Below are positions 1 through 15,823 of a stretch of 15,823 nt of DNA, one piece after another. Source of the stretch: Escherichia coli (GTDB taxonomy: Bacteria > Pseudomonadota > Gammaproteobacteria > Enterobacterales > Enterobacteriaceae); NCBI RefSeq assembly GCF_003334385.1, contig NZ_QOWN01000065.1; one strand, given 5' to 3'. The position numbers and the translations under genes are program-made. The stretch's first letter is position 1, and every line of letters starts with the position of its first letter. The notes beneath the pieces were generated by a model. That model searched no databases. It was not told the DNA's origin and saw nothing but the letters and a program-made list of their open reading frames with translations.

Positions 1-142
1 TAGGCCGGATAAGGCGTTCACGCCGCATCCGGCAGTCGTGCGCAGATGCCTGATGCGACGCTAACGCGTCTTATCAGACCTACAAATTCTCACGCCATCC
101 GTAGGCCGGATAAGGCGTTCACGCCGCATCCGGCAGTCGTGC
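1..142. repeat. REP/BIME cluster: a 41-bp unit (taggccggataaggcgttcacgccgcatccggcagtcgtgc) at 1..41 is repeated exactly at 102..142, with an oppositely oriented REP-like palindromic unit (gcctgatgcgacgctaacgcgtcttatcagacctac) at about 49..84
   Basis: Direct exact repeat and GC-rich imperfect palindromes of the GCCGGATG...CATCCGGC type seen in the sequence; REP elements are well known in E. coli intergenic regions. Lies downstream of the mhpE 3' end. Confidence 0.75.
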
Positions 143-182
143 TGGGATGGGCATACAAAATGCACGTTCTCGGCAGTCATCA

Positions 183-1192
183 TTATTTGTTGTTGCGCAG
201 ATCCAGCGCCACGTCAACGATCATATCCTCCTGGCCGCCAACCATCCGGCGTTTGCCCAGCTCAACGAGAATATCCACCGCACTTAAGCCATAACGCGCC
301 GCCGCCGTTTCACAGTGACGCAGGAAGCTCGAGTAAACACCAGCGTATCCCAGCGCCAGCGTTTCGCGATCGACTCGTACCGGTCGATCCTGCAACGGAC
401 GCACCAGGTCGTCGGCGGCATCCATTAACGCATAGAGATCGGTCCCATGCTGCCAGCCCAGTTTATCCGCGGCGGCAATAAACACTTCCAGCGGTGCGTT
501 ACCTGCGCCCGCGCCCATTCCCGCGAGGCTGGCGTCGATTCGGTCGCAGCCCTCTTCCACCGCCGCGATAGAGTTCGCCACGCCAAGACTCAGGTTATGG
601 TGAGCGTGCATGCCAGTTTGCGTTTCTGGTTTCAGCTCTGCTTTCAGGGCGCGGAAACGGTCACGGATATCGCTCATGTTCATCGCACCGCCAGAATCCA
701 CCACATAAATACAGGTCGCACCGTAGCCTTCCATCAGCTTTGCCTGCTTGGCGAGATTCTCCGGCGTGGTCATATGGCTCATCATCAGAAAACCAACGGT
801 GTCCATTCCGAGCTCGCGGGCATACTGAATATGCTGGGCGGAAACATCAGCTTCGGTACAGTGCGTTGCCACACGAACCACCCGCGCGCCAGCCTGCCAG
901 GCATTTTTCAGATCGTGAATAGTGCCGATTCCTGGCAGCAACAACGTCGCGATTTTGGCGTGCTTCACCACATCCGCCGCCGCTTCAATCCATTCAAGGT
1001 CGCTATGTGCGCCGAAACCATAGTTAAAGCTGGAACCTTGCAAACCGTCGCCGTGGGCCACTTCAATCGAATCCACGCGGGCATCGTCCAGTGCTTTGGC
1101 AATCTGGCGAACGTTTTCCAGCGAATACTGATGACGAATGGCGTGCATACCGTCACGCAATGTGACGTCCGAGATATAAAGTTTTTTACCGT

Positions 1193-1196
<4 letters not shown>
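183..1196 (-). CDS. mhpE: 4-hydroxy-2-oxovalerate aldolase (337 aa)
   Basis: 337-aa ORF; product and length match MhpE as recalled; HMG/pyruvate-aldolase-like sequence; start overlaps the mhpF stop by 4 nt (ATGA), consistent with operon coupling. Confidence 0.93.
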
Positions 1197-2958
<1,762 letters not shown>

Positions 2959-3825
2959 TTAAGGGCGTGCGAGGAAATTCAGCACCAGTTGATTGAAAGC
3001 GTCGGCATGTTCCCACTGCGCCCAGTGACCACAGTCGCGGAAGATATGCAGTTCAGAACCGGCAATGCCGGACAGCAGACGCAGACCCGCATCCATCGGC
3101 ACAAAGCGGTCGTTGCGCCCCCAGACAATCAGGGTTTGCGCTTTGATTTCCGCCAGACGTGGGCCAAAATCCGGGAACTGTTTCGGATTAGCTTCCAGGC
3201 TCTTAACGAAGTTTTCCAGGTGATCGCGGCGCGACAGCATATTATTCAGGCGCGCTTCAAACAGGGCGTCGGTCAAATCGCTGGTATCAAAAACGAAGAT
3301 ATCCATCATCAGCTTCAGGTTTTCGATAGTCGGCTGACGATAAAGCTGATTCAGTCGCTTAATACCTTCGGTTGGCATCGGCGTAAACAAACTCATGCCG
3401 CCCGTACCGCCGCCCATCAGCACCAGTTTGCCGACGCGCTCCGGCCATTTAAGGGTGAACGCCACAGAACTATGGCCCCCCATCGAGTTGCCCAGCAGGT
3501 GGATTTTGGCGATATCCAGTTGATCCACCACGCTTTTCAGGATTCGTGCATTAAGATCCGATCGCGAACCACTATTAACGACCGAATCGCTCTTGCCCCA
3601 ACCCGGACAATCCAGCAGGATCACCCGATAGCCCGCCTCTACCAGCGGATCGATATTGCGGCTGAAGTTCGCCCAGCCAGTAGCACCCGGGCCGGAACCA
3701 TGCAGCAGGACAACGGTTTCGTCGCCTTGTCCGCAGTCATTAAAATGGATGCGCAGCGTTTTACCCGCTTCTTCTACATTCAGAAAACGGCTGGTGGCGG
3801 CTTCGGTTTGTGGCTGATAACTCAT
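2959..3825 (-). CDS. mhpC: 2-hydroxy-6-oxonona-2,4-dienedioate hydrolase (alpha/beta hydrolase, 288 aa)
   Basis: The track ORF 2959..3888 is 309 aa; the recalled MhpC is 288 aa starting [14 protein letters not shown], which puts the start at 3825, preceded by an AGGAGA RBS. GNSMGG nucleophile-elbow motif present. Confidence 0.9.
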
Positions 3826-3842
3826 CATCTTCTCCTGCATAT

Positions 3843-4787
3843 TCAGTTCTCTGTTCTGGCGCTTAACGAGCCAAATCCGGCAATCCACTCCGGGATTGGG
3901 CGGTAATAACGCCCTTCGCTACGCCAGTTGCCAAACGCAGAAATAGCGGCAAAAGCGGCGACCCAGGTTTTGATTTAATGTGTCGACTTTCCGGCAATGG
4001 CGGAAAGCTCTTCGTTACTGACGGCATCCAGTTCCTGTATGCGTCCCTGCTCCAGCAAAGTCATGAACTGGTTATCCCAAATCGGGTTGAGCGGATGCAG
4101 CGTTCTCTGATCCTCAACAAACTTCTCAGCGGCGCTAATCACCCGTTGCTGACGCAATTCGCGCTCACTGGCGGGTAAATCTTTCCCGCTCCCCAACAGA
4201 CGGTCGCGCATATGGGCATCGGCTTTCGCCAGTTCGGGCACCGGCGGCTGATGGGAAAGCCCACCGGAACCCAGGAACAGCACGCGTTTATTGAGAGTGC
4301 TGGTGAAACGTCCAATGGCTTCACCCAACATGCGGGTACGCTGGAAACCGGGCAGCGGCGTGGCGACACCGTTGATGAACACAGGCAGAACTGGCACCTT
4401 ATCCAGCCCACCGAGCAGGAACTCCAGCGGCTGGGCGAACCCGTGGTCCACCTGCATACAGTAAGAAACGGCAAGATCGATCCCGCTCTTCATGACGGCA
4501 TGCGCACAGGCCTCCGCCAGCTCCACAGGCACGGGCAGCTCTCCTGCCGCACTGCCGAAATCACCAATTGCCGTCGCTCCAACGCCTAAACAGAACGGTG
4601 GCATCACGTCATAGAAAAAGCCGTTGTAGTGATCTGGCGCAAACAGCACCACCAGTTCAGGGGAGAATGCCGCAATACGCTCGCGGGCGCTGGCAATCAC
4701 GCCATTGACCTCATCGAGCACCTCTTGCGCCGGGTCGACATACCCCACCAGCGGCGAGTGGGAAAGACAGTGAAGATAAGCGTGCAT
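3843..4787 (-). CDS. mhpB: 3-carboxyethylcatechol 2,3-dioxygenase (extradiol dioxygenase), reading frame interrupted by an in-frame TAA at 3975..3977. The uninterrupted ORF is 3975..4787 (270 aa); the same frame continues for 43 more codons ([43 protein letters not shown]) to the expected stop at 3843..3845
   Basis: The 270-aa ORF matches the MhpB N-terminal 270 residues as recalled (full length 314 aa). Directly after the TAA the frame encodes the recalled MhpB C-terminus. Consistent with a single-nucleotide nonsense change (plus-strand position 3977 A; expected C, giving GAA Glu). Confidence 0.85.
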
Positions 4788-4788
4788 A

Positions 4789-6453
4789 TCAGGCTACCTT
4801 TTCGACAGAAACGTCGGCATCAGGGCGGGTCAGCGTCATCACCGACGCCAGTTTATTCAGGGTCTTGCCCAGGGTTTGCGGAATGGCGGTGGCGGCAACA
4901 AAGCGATCCGGGCGCATCACCACCAGCGAAGCATTGTGTTGCGCGAACCAGCTACGCAGGCGACCTTGCGTATCGCCCACGCGTAGTACGCCGTCGTGGT
5001 TATCCTGTGCGGTATGAATTTGCACTTCCGGCACCACCTGAATGAAGCGTGTGCCCAACGCGCGCCACTGCTGGATTTGCTCGTCGCTCATCCCCCACAG
5101 TGGATTGCATCCCCAGCCAATTACCGCGAAGTTCGCGCCGATCGCGTTATCGAGCAGCGTCACGTCGCCGTTTTCCAGCGTGACTTTCGGCTGAATAAAC
5201 ATCTTGCCGACCGGAGAGTGCTTCGCTTCGCCCTCACGCATCAGCGCACCGCCGTAATATTGCGGCATCGGCTTGAAGCGCATTTCGAGGAAGTAGCGTT
5301 TTACTGGCGGCAGATAATTCAACAGCCAGGAAACGCCGTCACGTAACGTACCCTGCCAGCGTTTCGGCGGAGCCAGCACGTTGCCCGCCGTCACGGACAG
5401 GTCAATCATCGCTTTGGCGTGATCGCGACGTTCTTGTTGATAGGTATCGAGCAGCGCATCGCGGGCTTTCCCCTGGATAACCAACGCCAGTTTCCATGCG
5501 AGGTTAAAGGCGTCGCGCATACCACTGTTATAGCCCTGCCCCTGCCATACCGGCATGATGTGCGCGGCATCGCCCGCCAGCAGTACGCGATCAATACGGA
5601 AACGTTGCGCCAGTCGCGCGTTGTGGGTGTAGACACGCTGGCGAATCAATTCAACATTGTCCGGATTAGGCAGCACTTTGCTTAACAGCTTGCGCATATT
5701 TTGCGGCTCACGCAACTGCTCTTCGGTTTCTCCCGGCATCACCATAAATTCAAAGCGACGTACCGCATGAGGCAGCGCGGCAGAAACATACGGGCGCACC
5801 GGATCGCAACACAAATAGATATGCGGCGTACTTAACGGATCGTTGGCGATATCTACCACAATCCACTGATTTGGCGCAGTTTTACCTTCAAACGGCACAT
5901 TCAGAGTGCGACGGACAAAACTTGCTCCACCGTCACAGGCTACCAGCCACTGGGCTTTGACTATTTCCCGCTGCCCTTCTGCCGTTTTCAGGTGCAAGGT
6001 CACTTCGTCATCTTGCTGACTGAAGGCCTCCAGCTCGCGGGAAAACAAGCAGCGCACATTCGGAAAACGCGACACCCCTTCCAGCATCACCGCATCGACC
6101 TGCGGCTGAATAAAGGCGTTACGGCGCGGCCAGCCAAATTCATCGGTCATTGGCTGAATATCAGCAAAACAGCGGCCTTTCGGGGTGAGAAAACGCATCG
6201 CGTGCCACGGCGTAGTGTGCGGCAGAACATCATCGACCAGGCCGACCGACTGCATGGTGCGCAGCGCCTCGTCATCAATACCAATCGCACGCGGGTAGTC
6301 GATCAACTTATCGAGTTTCTCCACCACCAGCACGTCAATGCCCATCTGGCCGAGATAGTTCGCCATCATCAGCCCAACCGGGCCGGCACCAGCGATCGCC
6401 ACCTGAACGCTATGGTTAACAGCAGGCTGGATGTCAGGGTGTTGTATTGCCAT
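4789..6453 (-). CDS. mhpA: 3-(3-hydroxyphenyl)propionate hydroxylase, FAD-dependent monooxygenase (554 aa)
   Basis: 554-aa ORF with N-terminal FAD-binding GxGxxG motif ([16 protein letters not shown]); length matches MhpA; stop lies 1 nt from the mhpB start. Confidence 0.93.
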
Positions 6454-6594
6454 TTCAGTACCTCACGACTCGGACAAAATGTCGTTGCGCGCACAGTACA
6501 GCGCAACTTATTTTGTTAAAAACATGTAAATGATTTTTTATTGTGCGCTCAGTATAGGAAGGGTGTTTTCGGCTACAATCAAAACATGCCCGAA

Positions 6595-6611
6595 TGTGCA
6601 CCAGGTGCACC
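6595..6611. promoter_or_regulatory. 17-bp imperfect palindrome tgtgcaccaggtgcacc (reverse complement ggtgcacctggtgcaca) in the divergent mhpR–mhpA intergenic region; candidate MhpR operator of the mhp catabolic promoter
   Basis: Palindrome seen in the sequence; assignment to MhpR is from recollection of the published Pa operator and is not verified here. Confidence 0.5.
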
Positions 6612-6643
6612 ACGTTGTTTTAACTATAGAAATGTCAATTAAT

Positions 6644-7477
6644 ATGCAGAACAATGAGCAGACGGAATACAAAACCGTGCGCGGCTTAACCCGCGGTCTA
6701 ATGTTATTAAATATGTTAAATAAACTTGATGGCGGTGCCAGCGTCGGGCTGCTGGCGGAACTCAGCGGCCTGCATCGCACCACTGTGCGGCGACTGCTGG
6801 AGACGCTGCAGGAAGAGGGATATGTCCGCCGTAGCCCCTCCGATGATAGTTTTCGACTGACCATCAAAGTGCGGCAATTAAGCGAAGGATTTCGTGACGA
6901 ACAGTGGATTTCTGCACTGGCGGCCCCACTGCTGGGCGATCTGTTGCGCGAAGTGGTATGGCCGACAGATGTGTCCACGCTGGATGTTGATGCAATGGTG
7001 GTACGCGAAACCACTCACCGTTTCAGCCGCTTATCCTTTCACCGGGCAATGGTCGGGCGACGTTTGCCGCTTCTGAAAACCGCCTCGGGCCTGACCTGGC
7101 TGGCCTTTTGCCCGTAACAAGACCGCAAGGAATTAATCGAAATGTTAGCCTCCCGCCCCGGTGATGACTATCAACTGGCACGGGAACCGTTAAAGCTGGA
7201 AGCCATTCTGGCGCGCGCGCGCAAAGAGGGTTACGGACAGAACTACCGCGGCTGGGATCAGGAGGAGAAGATCGCCTCTATCGCCGTACCGCTGCGCAGT
7301 GAACAACGGGTGATTGGCTGTCTGAATCTGGTGTATATGGCGAGCGCAATGACCATTGAACAGGCAGCGGAAAAGCATCTTCCGGCGCTACAACGGGTAG
7401 CAAAACAGATCGAAGAAGGGGTTGAATCGCAGGCTATTCTGGTGGCCGGAAGGCGAAGCGGCATGCATTTACGTTGA
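6644..7477 (+). CDS. mhpR: IclR-family transcriptional activator of the mhp operon (expected 277 aa), interrupted by an in-frame TAA at 7115..7117. Present as an N-terminal ORF 6644..7117 (157 aa from MQNNEQ; wHTH domain) and a same-frame C-terminal ORF 7142..7477 (111 aa)
   Basis: Track ORFs 6530..7117 and 7142..7477 are in the same frame, separated only by TAA plus 8 sense codons (QDRKELIE). Read-through from ATG 6644 gives exactly 277 codons, the recalled MhpR length. IclR-type HTH (LSGLHRTTVRRLLETL) present in the N-terminal part. Confidence 0.85.
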
Positions 7478-7489
7478 CACCATCGAATG

Positions 7490-7518
7490 GCGCAAAACCT
7501 TTCGCGGTATGGCATGAT
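7490..7518 (+). promoter_or_regulatory. lacI constitutive promoter: -35 GCGCAA (7490..7495) and -10 CATGAT (7513..7518); wild-type, not lacIq
   Basis: Sequence gacaccatcgaatggcgcaaaacctttcgcggtatggcatgatagcgcccgg matches the canonical wild-type lacI promoter as recalled; the lacIq C-to-T at the -35 is absent. Confidence 0.85.
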
Positions 7519-7553
7519 AGCGCCCGGAAGAGAGTCAATTCAGGGTGGTGAAT

Positions 7554-8636
7554 GTGAAACCAGTAACGTTATACGATGTCGCAGAGTATGCCGGTGTCTC
7601 TTATCAGACCGTTTCCCGCGTGGTGAACCAGGCCAGCCACGTTTCTGCGAAAACGCGGGAAAAAGTGGAAGCGGCGATGGCGGAGCTGAATTACATTCCC
7701 AACCGCGTGGCACAACAACTGGCGGGCAAACAGTCGTTGCTGATTGGCGTTGCCACCTCCAGTCTGGCCCTGCACGCGCCGGCGCAAATTGTCGCGGCGA
7801 TTAAATCTCGCGCCGATCAACTGGGTGCCAGCGTGGTGGTGTCGATGGTAGAACGAAGCGGCGTCGAAGCCTGTAAAGCGGCGGTGCACAATCTTCTCGC
7901 GCAACGCGTCAGTGGGCTGATCATTAACTATCCGCTGGATGACCAGGATGCCATTGCTGTGGAAGCTGCCTGCACTAATGTTCCGGCGTTATTTCTTGAT
8001 GTCTCTGACCAGACACCCATCAACAGTATTATTTTCTCCCATGAAGACGGTACGCGACTGGGCGTGGAGCATCTGGTCGCATTGGGTCACCAGCAAATCG
8101 CGCTGTTAGCGGGCCCATTAAGTTCTGTCTCGGCGCGTCTGCGTCTGGCTGGCTGGCATAAATATCTCACTCGCAATCAAATTCAGCCGATAGCGGAACG
8201 GGAAGGCGACTGGAGTGCCATGTCCGGTTTTCAACAAACCATGCAAATGCTGAATGAGGGCATCGTTCCCACTGCGATGCTGGTTGCCAACGATCAGATG
8301 GCGCTGGGCGCAATGCGCGCCATTACCGAGTCCGGGCTGCGCGTTGGTGCGGATATCTCGGTAGTGGGATACGACGATACCGAAGACAGCTCATGTTATA
8401 TCCCGCCGTTAACCACCATCAAACAGGATTTTCGCCTGCTGGGGCAAACCAGCGTGGACCGCTTGCTGCAACTCTCTCAGGGCCAGGCGGTGAAGGGCAA
8501 TCAGCTGTTGCCCGTCTCACTGGTGAAAAGAAAAACCACCCTGGCGCCCAATACGCAAACCGCCTCTCCCCGCGCGTTGGCCGATTCATTAATGCAGCTG
8601 GCACGACAGGTTTCCCGACTGGAAAGCGGGCAGTGA
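7554..8636 (+). CDS. lacI: lactose operon repressor LacI (360 aa), GTG start
   Basis: Begins GTG AAA CCA GTA (MKPVTLYDVAEYAGVSYQTVSRVVNQ); the track ORF starts two codons further upstream on an alternative start. Protein matches LacI throughout as recalled, except codon 77 (GCG Ala here, TCG Ser recalled). Ends ...RLESGQ followed by TGA. Confidence 0.96.
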   Translation: MKPVTLYDVAEYAGVSYQTVSRVVNQASHVSAKTREKVEAAMAELNYIPNRVAQQLAGKQSLLIGVATSSLALHAPAQIVAAIKSRADQLGASVVVSMVERSGVEACKAAVHNLLAQRVSGLIINYPLDDQDAIAVEAACTNVPALFLDVSDQTPINSIIFSHEDGTRLGVEHLVALGHQQIALLAGPLSSVSARLRLAGWHKYLTRNQIQPIAEREGDWSAMSGFQQTMQMLNEGIVPTAMLVANDQMALGAMRAITESGLRVGADISVVGYDDTEDSSCYIPPLTTIKQDFRLLGQTSVDRLLQLSQGQAVKGNQLLPVSLVKRKTTLAPNTQTASPRALADSLMQLARQVSRLESGQ

Positions 8637-8649
8637 GCGCAACGCAATT
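8629..8649 (+). promoter_or_regulatory. lac auxiliary operator O3 (ggcagtgagcgcaacgcaatt), overlapping the lacI 3' end
   Basis: Exact match to the canonical O3 sequence as recalled. Confidence 0.9.
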
Positions 8650-8671
8650 AATGTGAGTTAGCTCACTCATT
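8650..8671 (+). promoter_or_regulatory. CRP (CAP) binding site of the lac promoter (aatgtgagttagctcactcatt)
   Basis: Canonical TGTGA-N6-TCACT lac CAP site, exact as recalled. Confidence 0.92.
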
Positions 8672-8684
8672 AGGCACCCCAGGC

Positions 8685-8714
8685 TTTACACTTTATGCTT
8701 CCGGCTCGTATGTT
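8685..8714 (+). promoter_or_regulatory. lac promoter P1: -35 TTTACA (8685..8690) and -10 TATGTT (8709..8714); wild-type, not lacUV5
   Basis: Hexamers and spacing match wild-type lacP; the -10 is TATGTT rather than the UV5 TATAAT. Confidence 0.92.
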
Positions 8715-8720
8715 GTGTAA

Positions 8721-11833
<3,113 letters not shown>

Positions 11834-11839
11834 TAATAA

Positions 11840-13138
<1,299 letters not shown>

Positions 13139-13147
13139 GCAATCAAT

Positions 13148-13177
13148 GTCGGATGCGGCGCGAGCGCCTTATCCGAC
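13148..13177 (+). repeat. REP-like palindrome gtcggatgcggcgcgagcgccttatccgac in the lacY–lacA intergenic region
   Basis: Near-perfect inverted repeat seen in the sequence, just upstream of the lacA RBS (ggag, 13192..13195). Confidence 0.6.
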
Positions 13178-13203
13178 CAACATATCATAACGGAGTGATC
13201 GCA

Positions 13204-13815
13204 TTGAACATGCCAATGACCGAAAGAATAAGAGCAGGCAAGCTATTTACCGATATGTGCGAAGGCTTACCGGAAAAAAGACTTCGTGGGAAAACGTTAA
13301 TGTATGAGTTTAATCACTCGCATCCATCAGAAGTTGAAAAAAGAGAAAGCCTGATTAAAGAAATGTTTGCCACGGTAGGGGAAAACGCCTGGGTAGAACC
13401 GCCTGTCTATTTCTCTTACGGTTCCAACATCCATATAGGCCGCAATTTTTATGCAAATTTCAATTTAACCATTGTCGATGACTACACGGTAACAATCGGT
13501 GATAACGTACTGATTGCACCCAACGTTACTCTTTCCGTTACGGGACACCCTGTACACCATGAATTGAGAAAAAACGGCGAGATGTACTCTTTTCCGATAA
13601 CGATTGGCAATAACGTCTGGATCGGAAGTCATGTGGTTATTAATCCAGGCGTCACCATCGGGGATAATTCTGTTATTGGCGCGGGTAGTATCGTCACAAA
13701 AGACATTCCACCAAACGTCGTGGCGGCTGGCGTTCCTTGTCGGGTTATTCGCGAAATAAACGACCGGGATAAGCACTATTATTTCAAAGATTATAAAGTT
13801 GAATCGTCAGTTTAA
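13204..13815 (+). CDS. lacA: galactoside O-acetyltransferase LacA (203 aa), TTG start
   Basis: The track ORF 13153..13815 (220 aa) contains ...LNMPMTERIRAGK; the recalled LacA is 203 aa starting MNMPMTERIR on a TTG codon (13204). Hexapeptide-repeat acyltransferase motifs present. Confidence 0.92.
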   Translation: MNMPMTERIRAGKLFTDMCEGLPEKRLRGKTLMYEFNHSHPSEVEKRESLIKEMFATVGENAWVEPPVYFSYGSNIHIGRNFYANFNLTIVDDYTVTIGDNVLIAPNVTLSVTGHPVHHELRKNGEMYSFPITIGNNVWIGSHVVINPGVTIGDNSVIGAGSIVTKDIPPNVVAAGVPCRVIREINDRDKHYYFKDYKVESSV

Positions 13816-13827
13816 ATTATAAAAATT

Positions 13828-13856
13828 GCCTGATACGCTGCGCTTATCAGGCCTAC
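13828..13856 (+). terminator. REP-type palindrome gcctgatacgctgcgcttatcaggcctac downstream of lacA, a likely 3' hairpin and transcript stabiliser for the lac operon, facing the convergent cynX
   Basis: Inverted repeat (gcctgata / tatcaggc) 12 nt after the lacA stop; no U-tract, so this is a REP hairpin rather than a classical intrinsic terminator. Confidence 0.5.
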
Positions 13857-13917
13857 AAGTTCAGCGATCTACATTAGCCGCATCCGGCATGAACAAAGCG
13901 CAGGAACAAGCGTCGCA

Positions 13918-15605: not shown

Positions 15606-15823
15606 TTACGCTGCGGTCGGTTGGCGTAGCGGTATGGCACAAACGCGAGGATTAGCGGCCAGTGGCACAAACTGGCGGGTTGCGCCGTCAAAAGCTGCGA
15701 TGCTGCCGCTTTCAATGTCGTAGACCCAGCCGTGCAGGGCGATCCGCCCATAAGCGCTAACTTAAGGGTTGTGGTATTACGCCTGATATGATTTAACGTG
15801 CCGATGAATTACTCTCACGATAA
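15606..15823 (-). CDS. cynT: carbonic anhydrase CynT, 3' portion only (gene runs off the window). The last 48 codons (15609..15752) encode [47 protein letters not shown]; upstream of about 15753 the frame is not open
   Basis: Hand translation of the minus strand gives the CynT C-terminus as recalled, with a TAA stop at 15606..15608. An in-frame TAA lies at 15762..15764 and all three minus-strand frames contain stops in 15753..15823. Confidence 0.7.

Follow-up and report, generated by a model that had tools for sequence, protein, structure and literature searches.

Does the in-frame stop codon in mhpB of this Escherichia coli strain reflect a genuine lesion and, if so, what would it mean for the enzyme, for the genes downstream and for the lineage that carries it? 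The window, that is, the whole 15.8-kb stretch of DNA analysed here, corresponds to the E. coli mhp-lac-cyn region (Table 1). Taken together, the evidence set out below makes it very probable that this is a loss-of-function allele of mhpB in a natural lineage, accompanied by a second lesion in mhpR.

Table 1. Features of the window and single-base differences from strain VG48B2; base changes are given for the plus strand unless a codon is shown.
Feature	Position	Strand	Details
mhpE, mhpF, mhpD, mhpC, mhpB, mhpA	183..6453	minus	
mhpR, lacI, lacZ, lacY, lacA	6644..13815	plus	
cynX, cynS, 3' end of cynT	3' of the lac genes in the window	minus	
mhpB, full frame	3843..4787	minus	
Premature ochre stop (TAA), mhpB codon 271	3975..3977	minus	GAA in the wild type, for Glu271, predicted to bind Fe(II) as a ligand
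Truncated mhpB frame, 270 codons	3978..4787	minus	ORF 3975..4787 including the stop; ORF table and translation
Orphaned mhpB 3' remnant	3843..3974	minus	43 sense codons and the native TGA (3843..3845); translation
mhpC, intact, 288 aa	2959..3825	minus	first gene downstream of the premature stop; no internal stops
Ribosome-binding site of mhpC, AGGAG	3832..3836	minus	the ATG at 3825 follows six bases downstream; read from the sequence
mhpA, intact, 554 aa	4789..6453	minus	one synonymous difference at 5715 (L247, CTG>TTG)
mhpR, IclR-type activator gene of the mhp operon	6644..7477	plus	interrupted at codon 158
Second premature ochre stop, GAA>TAA	7115..7117	plus	MhpR E158*
C>A	3977		MhpB E271*
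G>A	5715		mhpA L247L, synonymous
G>T	7115		MhpR E158*, GAA>TAA
T>G	7782	plus	LacI S77A, lacI codon 77 TCG>GCG
G>A	8719	plus	lac promoter -2
G>A	8732	plus	lacO1 +12, adjoining the dyad centre
C>A	8821		lacZ G21G, synonymous
cynT, last 144 bases left	15606..15823		interrupted at 15749/15750, where the end of an IS421/IS186-type element begins

On the minus strand the sequence around the site reads AAG TCG ACA CAT TAA ATC AAA, with the TAA at 3977..3975, and translation of 3843..4787 gives a product of 270 residues that terminates in AIAGKSTH. The 43 codons on the 3' side of the stop encode IKTWVAAF...SARTEN. The original prediction had placed the stop, the 270-residue product and the 43 open codons correctly in all their coordinates and counts. 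It had also ascribed the truncation to a single base, an A at plus-strand position 3977 where a C, giving GAA for Glu, was expected, and this is borne out by K-12 MG1655 (NC_000913.3), VG48B2 and SCU-104, each of which has C at this position; every reference genome that we read base by base has GAA at codon 271. The change is therefore C>A on the plus strand and G>T on the coding strand, GAA>TAA (E271*). Alignment to K-12 MhpB (b0348, 2,3-dihydroxyphenylpropionate 1,2-dioxygenase, PDB 8K04/9KTI) shows a glutamate codon and not a stop at this position in MG1655, in a protein of 314 residues, the length also given for MhpB by RefSeq annotation and by PDB 8K04/9KTI. The 270 residues of the truncated product are identical to K-12 MhpB and to PDB 8K04, and the 43 codons after the stop are identical to the wild-type C-terminus, which confirms that they belong to MhpB. 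The gene order is likewise that of K-12, with mhpR followed by the divergent mhpA-B-C-D-F-E, and the K-12 gene matches ours at 944 of 945 bases. The features by which a nonsense pseudogene is recognised are all present: a sense codon in the orthologues, a homologous downstream frame and an allele that is reproduced in a public contig.

That public contig bears directly on the possibility of a sequencing or assembly error in a strain whose codon is truly GAA. Such an error could be suspected from a one-base deviation in a very conserved sequence: across 4,900 complete E. coli genomes the best match to the mhpB of the window is again 944 of 945 bases, and none of the 4,880 complete genomes that match a 61-mer centred on codon 271 matches the TAA form perfectly. 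However, a look-up of the exact 270-residue product in public assemblies retrieved a Logan contig (L005, run ERR1948963, present in six runs) that is 100% identical to window positions 114..13176 and carries the mhpB stop together with all six other differences from the wild type. The six runs may share one project, and the window itself may derive from one of them; even so, the presence of the same base in an independently assembled public contig from six runs makes a lone read or assembly error very unlikely. In addition, TAA occurs at the same codon in a second lineage, represented by four runs, and position 3977 lies outside any homopolymer. An error is thus highly improbable, and the mhpB stop is genuine. 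L005 ends where REP-like repeats occur in the window, at about 95..125 and 13160..13180; these repeats probably explain the roughly 34 matching places per genome obtained when the whole window was used as the query. Further contigs returned by exact-product look-ups (L006-L009 and L012-L020) were considered as additional carriers of the stops and rejected, being wild type and simply breaking off at the codon in question; since L006-L009 read CAT GA... and end at codon 271, their retrieval is an artefact of searching with the exact product.

The second lineage is represented by contig L004 (Logan SRR29106068), which shows the same GAA>TAA change in mhpB and is about 1.3% divergent from the window. 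Its mhpB with the stop lies at contig positions 10001..10813, and its mhpR is intact. Compared with E. coli B7A, L004 has three differences in 3.5 kb, all of them inside mhpB and the stop among them, and the B7A haplotype flanks the stop on both sides (nucleotide 687 on one side, nucleotides 850 and 852 on the other). The presence of the B7A haplotype on either side points to a nonsense change that arose there on its own. This recurrence comes from a search that covered the exact 270-residue product alone. With 88 ways of reaching a stop codon in a single step open to mhpB, and with so large a number of E. coli genomes sequenced, the recurrence of one given route is unsurprising.

In the same contig, 46 bases (contig 1585..1630) stand in place of the lacA region (window 13158..13904), and lacY is called at 407 aa. 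The idea that L004 could be Shigella sonnei, suggested by PMC12778403 in view of the missing lacA and shortened lacY, was rejected: mhpC, mhpD, mhpF and mhpE are intact, and the closest complete relative is E. coli B7A.

With regard to the enzyme, the loss of the C-terminal 44 residues had been proposed to inactivate ring cleavage, and the comparison with related dioxygenases strengthens this proposal. In the repaired MhpB the Pfam LigB domain (PF02900) spans residues 5-306, covering model positions 2-269 of 269, and the 270-residue frame lacks a complete domain, about 36 of its residues being missing. A confident AlphaFold model of the full protein (pLDDT 96.7) assigns residues 271-314 to the two terminal strands, 288-298 and 303-312, and to the greater part of helix 267-283. 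From a scan of 1.84 billion proteins we took 43 full-length representatives, with identities down to 31%, and their alignment with MhpB, 44 homologues in all, revealed 14 invariant columns: H10, H53, P63, D114, H115, P135, G155, G175, S178, H179, D238, G266, E271 and W275. The truncated product keeps His10, His53, His115 and His179, and the first residue that it loses is the invariant Glu271.

The role of this glutamate is suggested by LigB (protocatechuate 4,5-dioxygenase beta subunit, 1B4U/1BOU) and DesB (gallate dioxygenase, 3WKU), which share the Pfam LigB fold with MhpB although their identity to it is distant and about 44 extra residues are inserted in MhpB between His179 and Trp237. A phmmer search with the C-terminal 81 residues of MhpB against PDB sequences found MhpB itself alone, and a profile of the MhpB family was needed to reach LigB and DesB. 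The profile matches both in two colinear pieces, the second of which carries the motif G-x4-E-x3-W and places Glu271 on LigB Glu242 and DesB Glu239; taken alone, this C-terminal piece is weak (domain E-values 0.13 and 0.013), but it rests on motif positions that are invariant in the family, and the N-terminal match with which it is colinear is highly significant. In DesB, Glu239 binds the catalytic Fe(II), along with His12, Asn57 and His59, and the coordination sphere of LigAB is essentially the same (PMC3962378). The same paper equates DesB His124 and His192 with MhpB His115 and His179, to which, citing Mendel et al. 2004, it ascribes the proposed roles of catalytic acid and base. MhpB His10, His53, Glu271, His115 and His179 therefore align with the metal ligands and catalytic histidines of LigB and DesB. 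Glu271 is predicted from this alignment to serve as the third protein ligand for the catalytic Fe(II): of the His/His/Glu set (His12/His61/Glu242 in LigB, His12/His59/Glu239 in DesB), the truncated MhpB retains His10 and His53 and loses Glu271, with a stop standing in place of the glutamate ligand of its relatives.

Relative to K-12 MhpB, codon 271 is thus TAA and not GAA, and the product has 270 instead of 314 residues, without Glu271 and without the C-terminal helix and hairpin. The G>T change on the coding strand turns the Glu271 codon into an ochre codon, and translation ends after residue 270. According to the mechanism that we propose, the resulting product, devoid of the predicted Fe(II)-ligand glutamate, of most of its helix and of the two closing beta-strands of the LigB fold, would leave 2,3-dihydroxyphenylpropionate uncleaved. 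With the cut falling inside the LigB domain and an invariant residue aligned on the Fe(II) ligand of LigB and DesB, we infer with considerable confidence that the truncated MhpB has lost cleavage of this substrate.

The persistence of MhpB function, either by ochre suppression or readthrough or through activity of the 270-residue fragment itself, has in its favour that the stop spares all the catalytic histidines and two of the predicted metal ligands, which precede it. It is nevertheless most improbable, given that Glu271 is invariant and aligned with a metal ligand, that some 36 LigB-domain residues and two core strands are missing, and that no start codon was found in the mhpB frame after the premature stop from which a complementing fragment could be made. 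Without an in-frame start, the remnant is expected to remain untranslated as a separate piece. TAA is moreover the stop codon that is most efficiently terminated in E. coli, which counts against readthrough, although an ochre suppressor may exist elsewhere in the genome, beyond the 15.8-kb window.

Besides mhpB, the window carries a second premature ochre codon, in mhpR, which had been missed in the original prediction. None of the 4,867 complete genomes that match the 61-mer at mhpR codon 158 is a perfect match to its TAA form. In the identical public contig, mhpR is called as two pieces, one of 195 aa with HTH_IclR only and one of 111 aa with no Pfam hit; intact MhpR in the other loci has HTH_IclR and IclR_C in one polypeptide, and the MhpR of the window lacks the IclR_C effector domain. 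MhpR is annotated as a transcriptional activator, and inducers stimulate its binding at the mhpABCDFE promoter (PMC11237407). Since the activator is truncated, the mhp operon should stay uninduced. The E158* change would remove the effector-binding domain, so that the mhpABCDFE promoter would never be switched on, and, judging from the domain content, the truncation should silence mhpABCDFE whatever the state of mhpB.

This second lesion is also relevant to the question of polarity. It had been suggested that the mhp genes overlap or abut and that the mhpB stop could reduce expression of the genes downstream. The first part does not hold for mhpB and mhpC, as 17 bases separate the native mhpB stop from the mhpC ATG. 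As for the second, the premature stop does leave 149 untranslated bases before the mhpC start, which would suffice in principle for Rho to load, and this much of the suggestion stands. The stretch, however, is not C-rich: its C/G ratio is 0.80, with more G than C, and in 78-nt windows along it C ranges from 23 to 28% and G from 27 to 32%, C exceeding G in a single window (28.2% vs 26.9%) and G being higher elsewhere. Its folding energy is ordinary when compared with shuffled sequence (z -0.67), and no terminator-like site was found on its coding strand. Furthermore, mhpC has its own AGGAG and ATG, allowing ribosomes to reload 149 bases downstream of the stop, and with a truncated MhpR the operon promoter should be off, making polarity moot. 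It is therefore unlikely that Rho-dependent termination lowering mhpC, mhpD, mhpF and mhpE is the main consequence of the stop; some Rho-dependent loss of downstream expression may occur, but we would, tentatively, not predict a strong one.

How the two stops came about may be approached by comparison with VG48B2, which over 15,749 bases is otherwise identical to the window. Seven bases separate the window from VG48B2, and eight separate it from K-12. All seven differences fall in 3977..8821, that is, in 4.8 kb of the 15.7 kb compared, and the other 10.9 kb contain none (range test for clustering, P ~0.004, or 0.012 without position 8732). Their spectrum is mixed, with three G:C>T:A, three G:C>A:T and one A:T>C:G. 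LacI S77A is absent from all complete genomes that match its 61-mer and, among public assemblies, occurs in the same contig family as both stops and nowhere else; a literature search on LacI Ser77 returned nothing specific. The G>A change at lac promoter -2 is absent from six reference genomes read base by base. We considered whether all seven differences could be private to the lineage and rejected this idea, as the G>A change at lacO1 +12 (8732) is a natural polymorphism found in 298 complete genomes, for example in strain 203740. The truncated MhpB, the MhpR stop and LacI S77A co-occur in the ERR1948963-type contig family alone.

The strain background can be read from two other sites. At lac promoter -1 (8720) the window has A, as do VG48B2, SCU-104 and natural isolates, in contrast to the G of K-12, and because of this A the background is best read as that of a natural strain which is K-12-like in the mhp-lac-cyn region. 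In addition, among 5,426 complete genomes the cynT::IS421 junction is shared by SCU-104 alone, a human commensal that carries none of the seven differences (0/7).

These data allow us to weigh two other accounts of the origin of the stops. Laboratory mutagenesis or engineering, as opposed to natural decay, would be in line with the clustering at the lac-mhp junction, where all seven differences are confined to 4.8 kb while the rest of the 15.7 kb is identical to wild-type genomes, with the fact that both knockouts are GAA>TAA, and with the joint occurrence of LacI S77A, the 270-residue MhpB and MhpR E158* in one small contig family alone. We regard it as improbable, since the background is not K-12 (as seen from the A at lac promoter -1 and the cynT junction common to SCU-104), the mixed spectrum fits no single mutagen, scars, cassettes and designed synonymous blocks are absent, and the change at 8732 also occurs naturally in 298 genomes. 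To about the same degree we doubt that the mhpB stop arose in an episode of selection or of local hypermutation rather than by neutral decay, a reading to which the independent origin of an identical E271* at least twice in unrelated backgrounds lends some weight, as do the six or seven substitutions in 4.8 kb that break mhpR and also alter LacI (S77A) as well as the promoter and operator of lac. Under selection, the pressure would have been exerted against production of the toxic catechol intermediate, and mhpB would have gone first, the loss of mhpR then compensating; alternatively, a local mutation shower would have struck around the mhp-lac junction. As to the clustering itself, local mutagenesis, laboratory history, relaxed selection and chance may each be candidates.

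The preferred reading, natural decay of mhpB and mhpR, is in line with other lesions of the mhp genes. In 526 of 5,426 complete genomes mhpB is unmatched. In VG48B2 the 3-hydroxyphenylpropionate transporter gene mhpT is frameshifted by annotation (L002, 1..1105); contigs L008 and L009 have lost, at about 4600..5580, 149 bp of the promoter region between mhpR and mhpA (window 6457..6605), and in L008 mhpR is called in two pieces, an independent route to loss of the mhp pathway; in E. coli BW25113 an IS30 lies inside mhpC. Compared with these lesions, the lineage of the window is distinguished by two nonsense codons, one in an enzyme gene and one in the activator gene, neither of which occurs in the matched complete genomes. 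The allele is a rare case of ordinary decay in a dispensable catabolic cluster.

As mhpB, its enzyme family, the pathway and the regulator are already well characterised, the allele adds nothing new on the enzyme, the pathway or gene decay. For annotation, both mhpB and mhpR are to be flagged as pseudogenes. As regards physiology, both lesions together would abolish growth on 3-hydroxyphenylpropionate and block the lower pathway shared with phenylpropionate; we infer the loss of enzyme activity, the silence of the operon and the growth phenotype alike, and on the strength of the two stop codons 3-hydroxyphenylpropionate, 3-hydroxycinnamate and phenylpropionate should be unusable via the mhp route. 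These substrates are gut metabolites of plant phenolics. In work cited in PMC11237407, as summarised there, an EHEC mhpR mutant was outcompeted in colonisation of the mouse intestine, so that the loss of mhp functions may carry a small colonisation cost. For the family of extradiol enzymes to which MhpB belongs, the allele would represent a natural knockout of the glutamate predicted to bind Fe(II) in MhpB.
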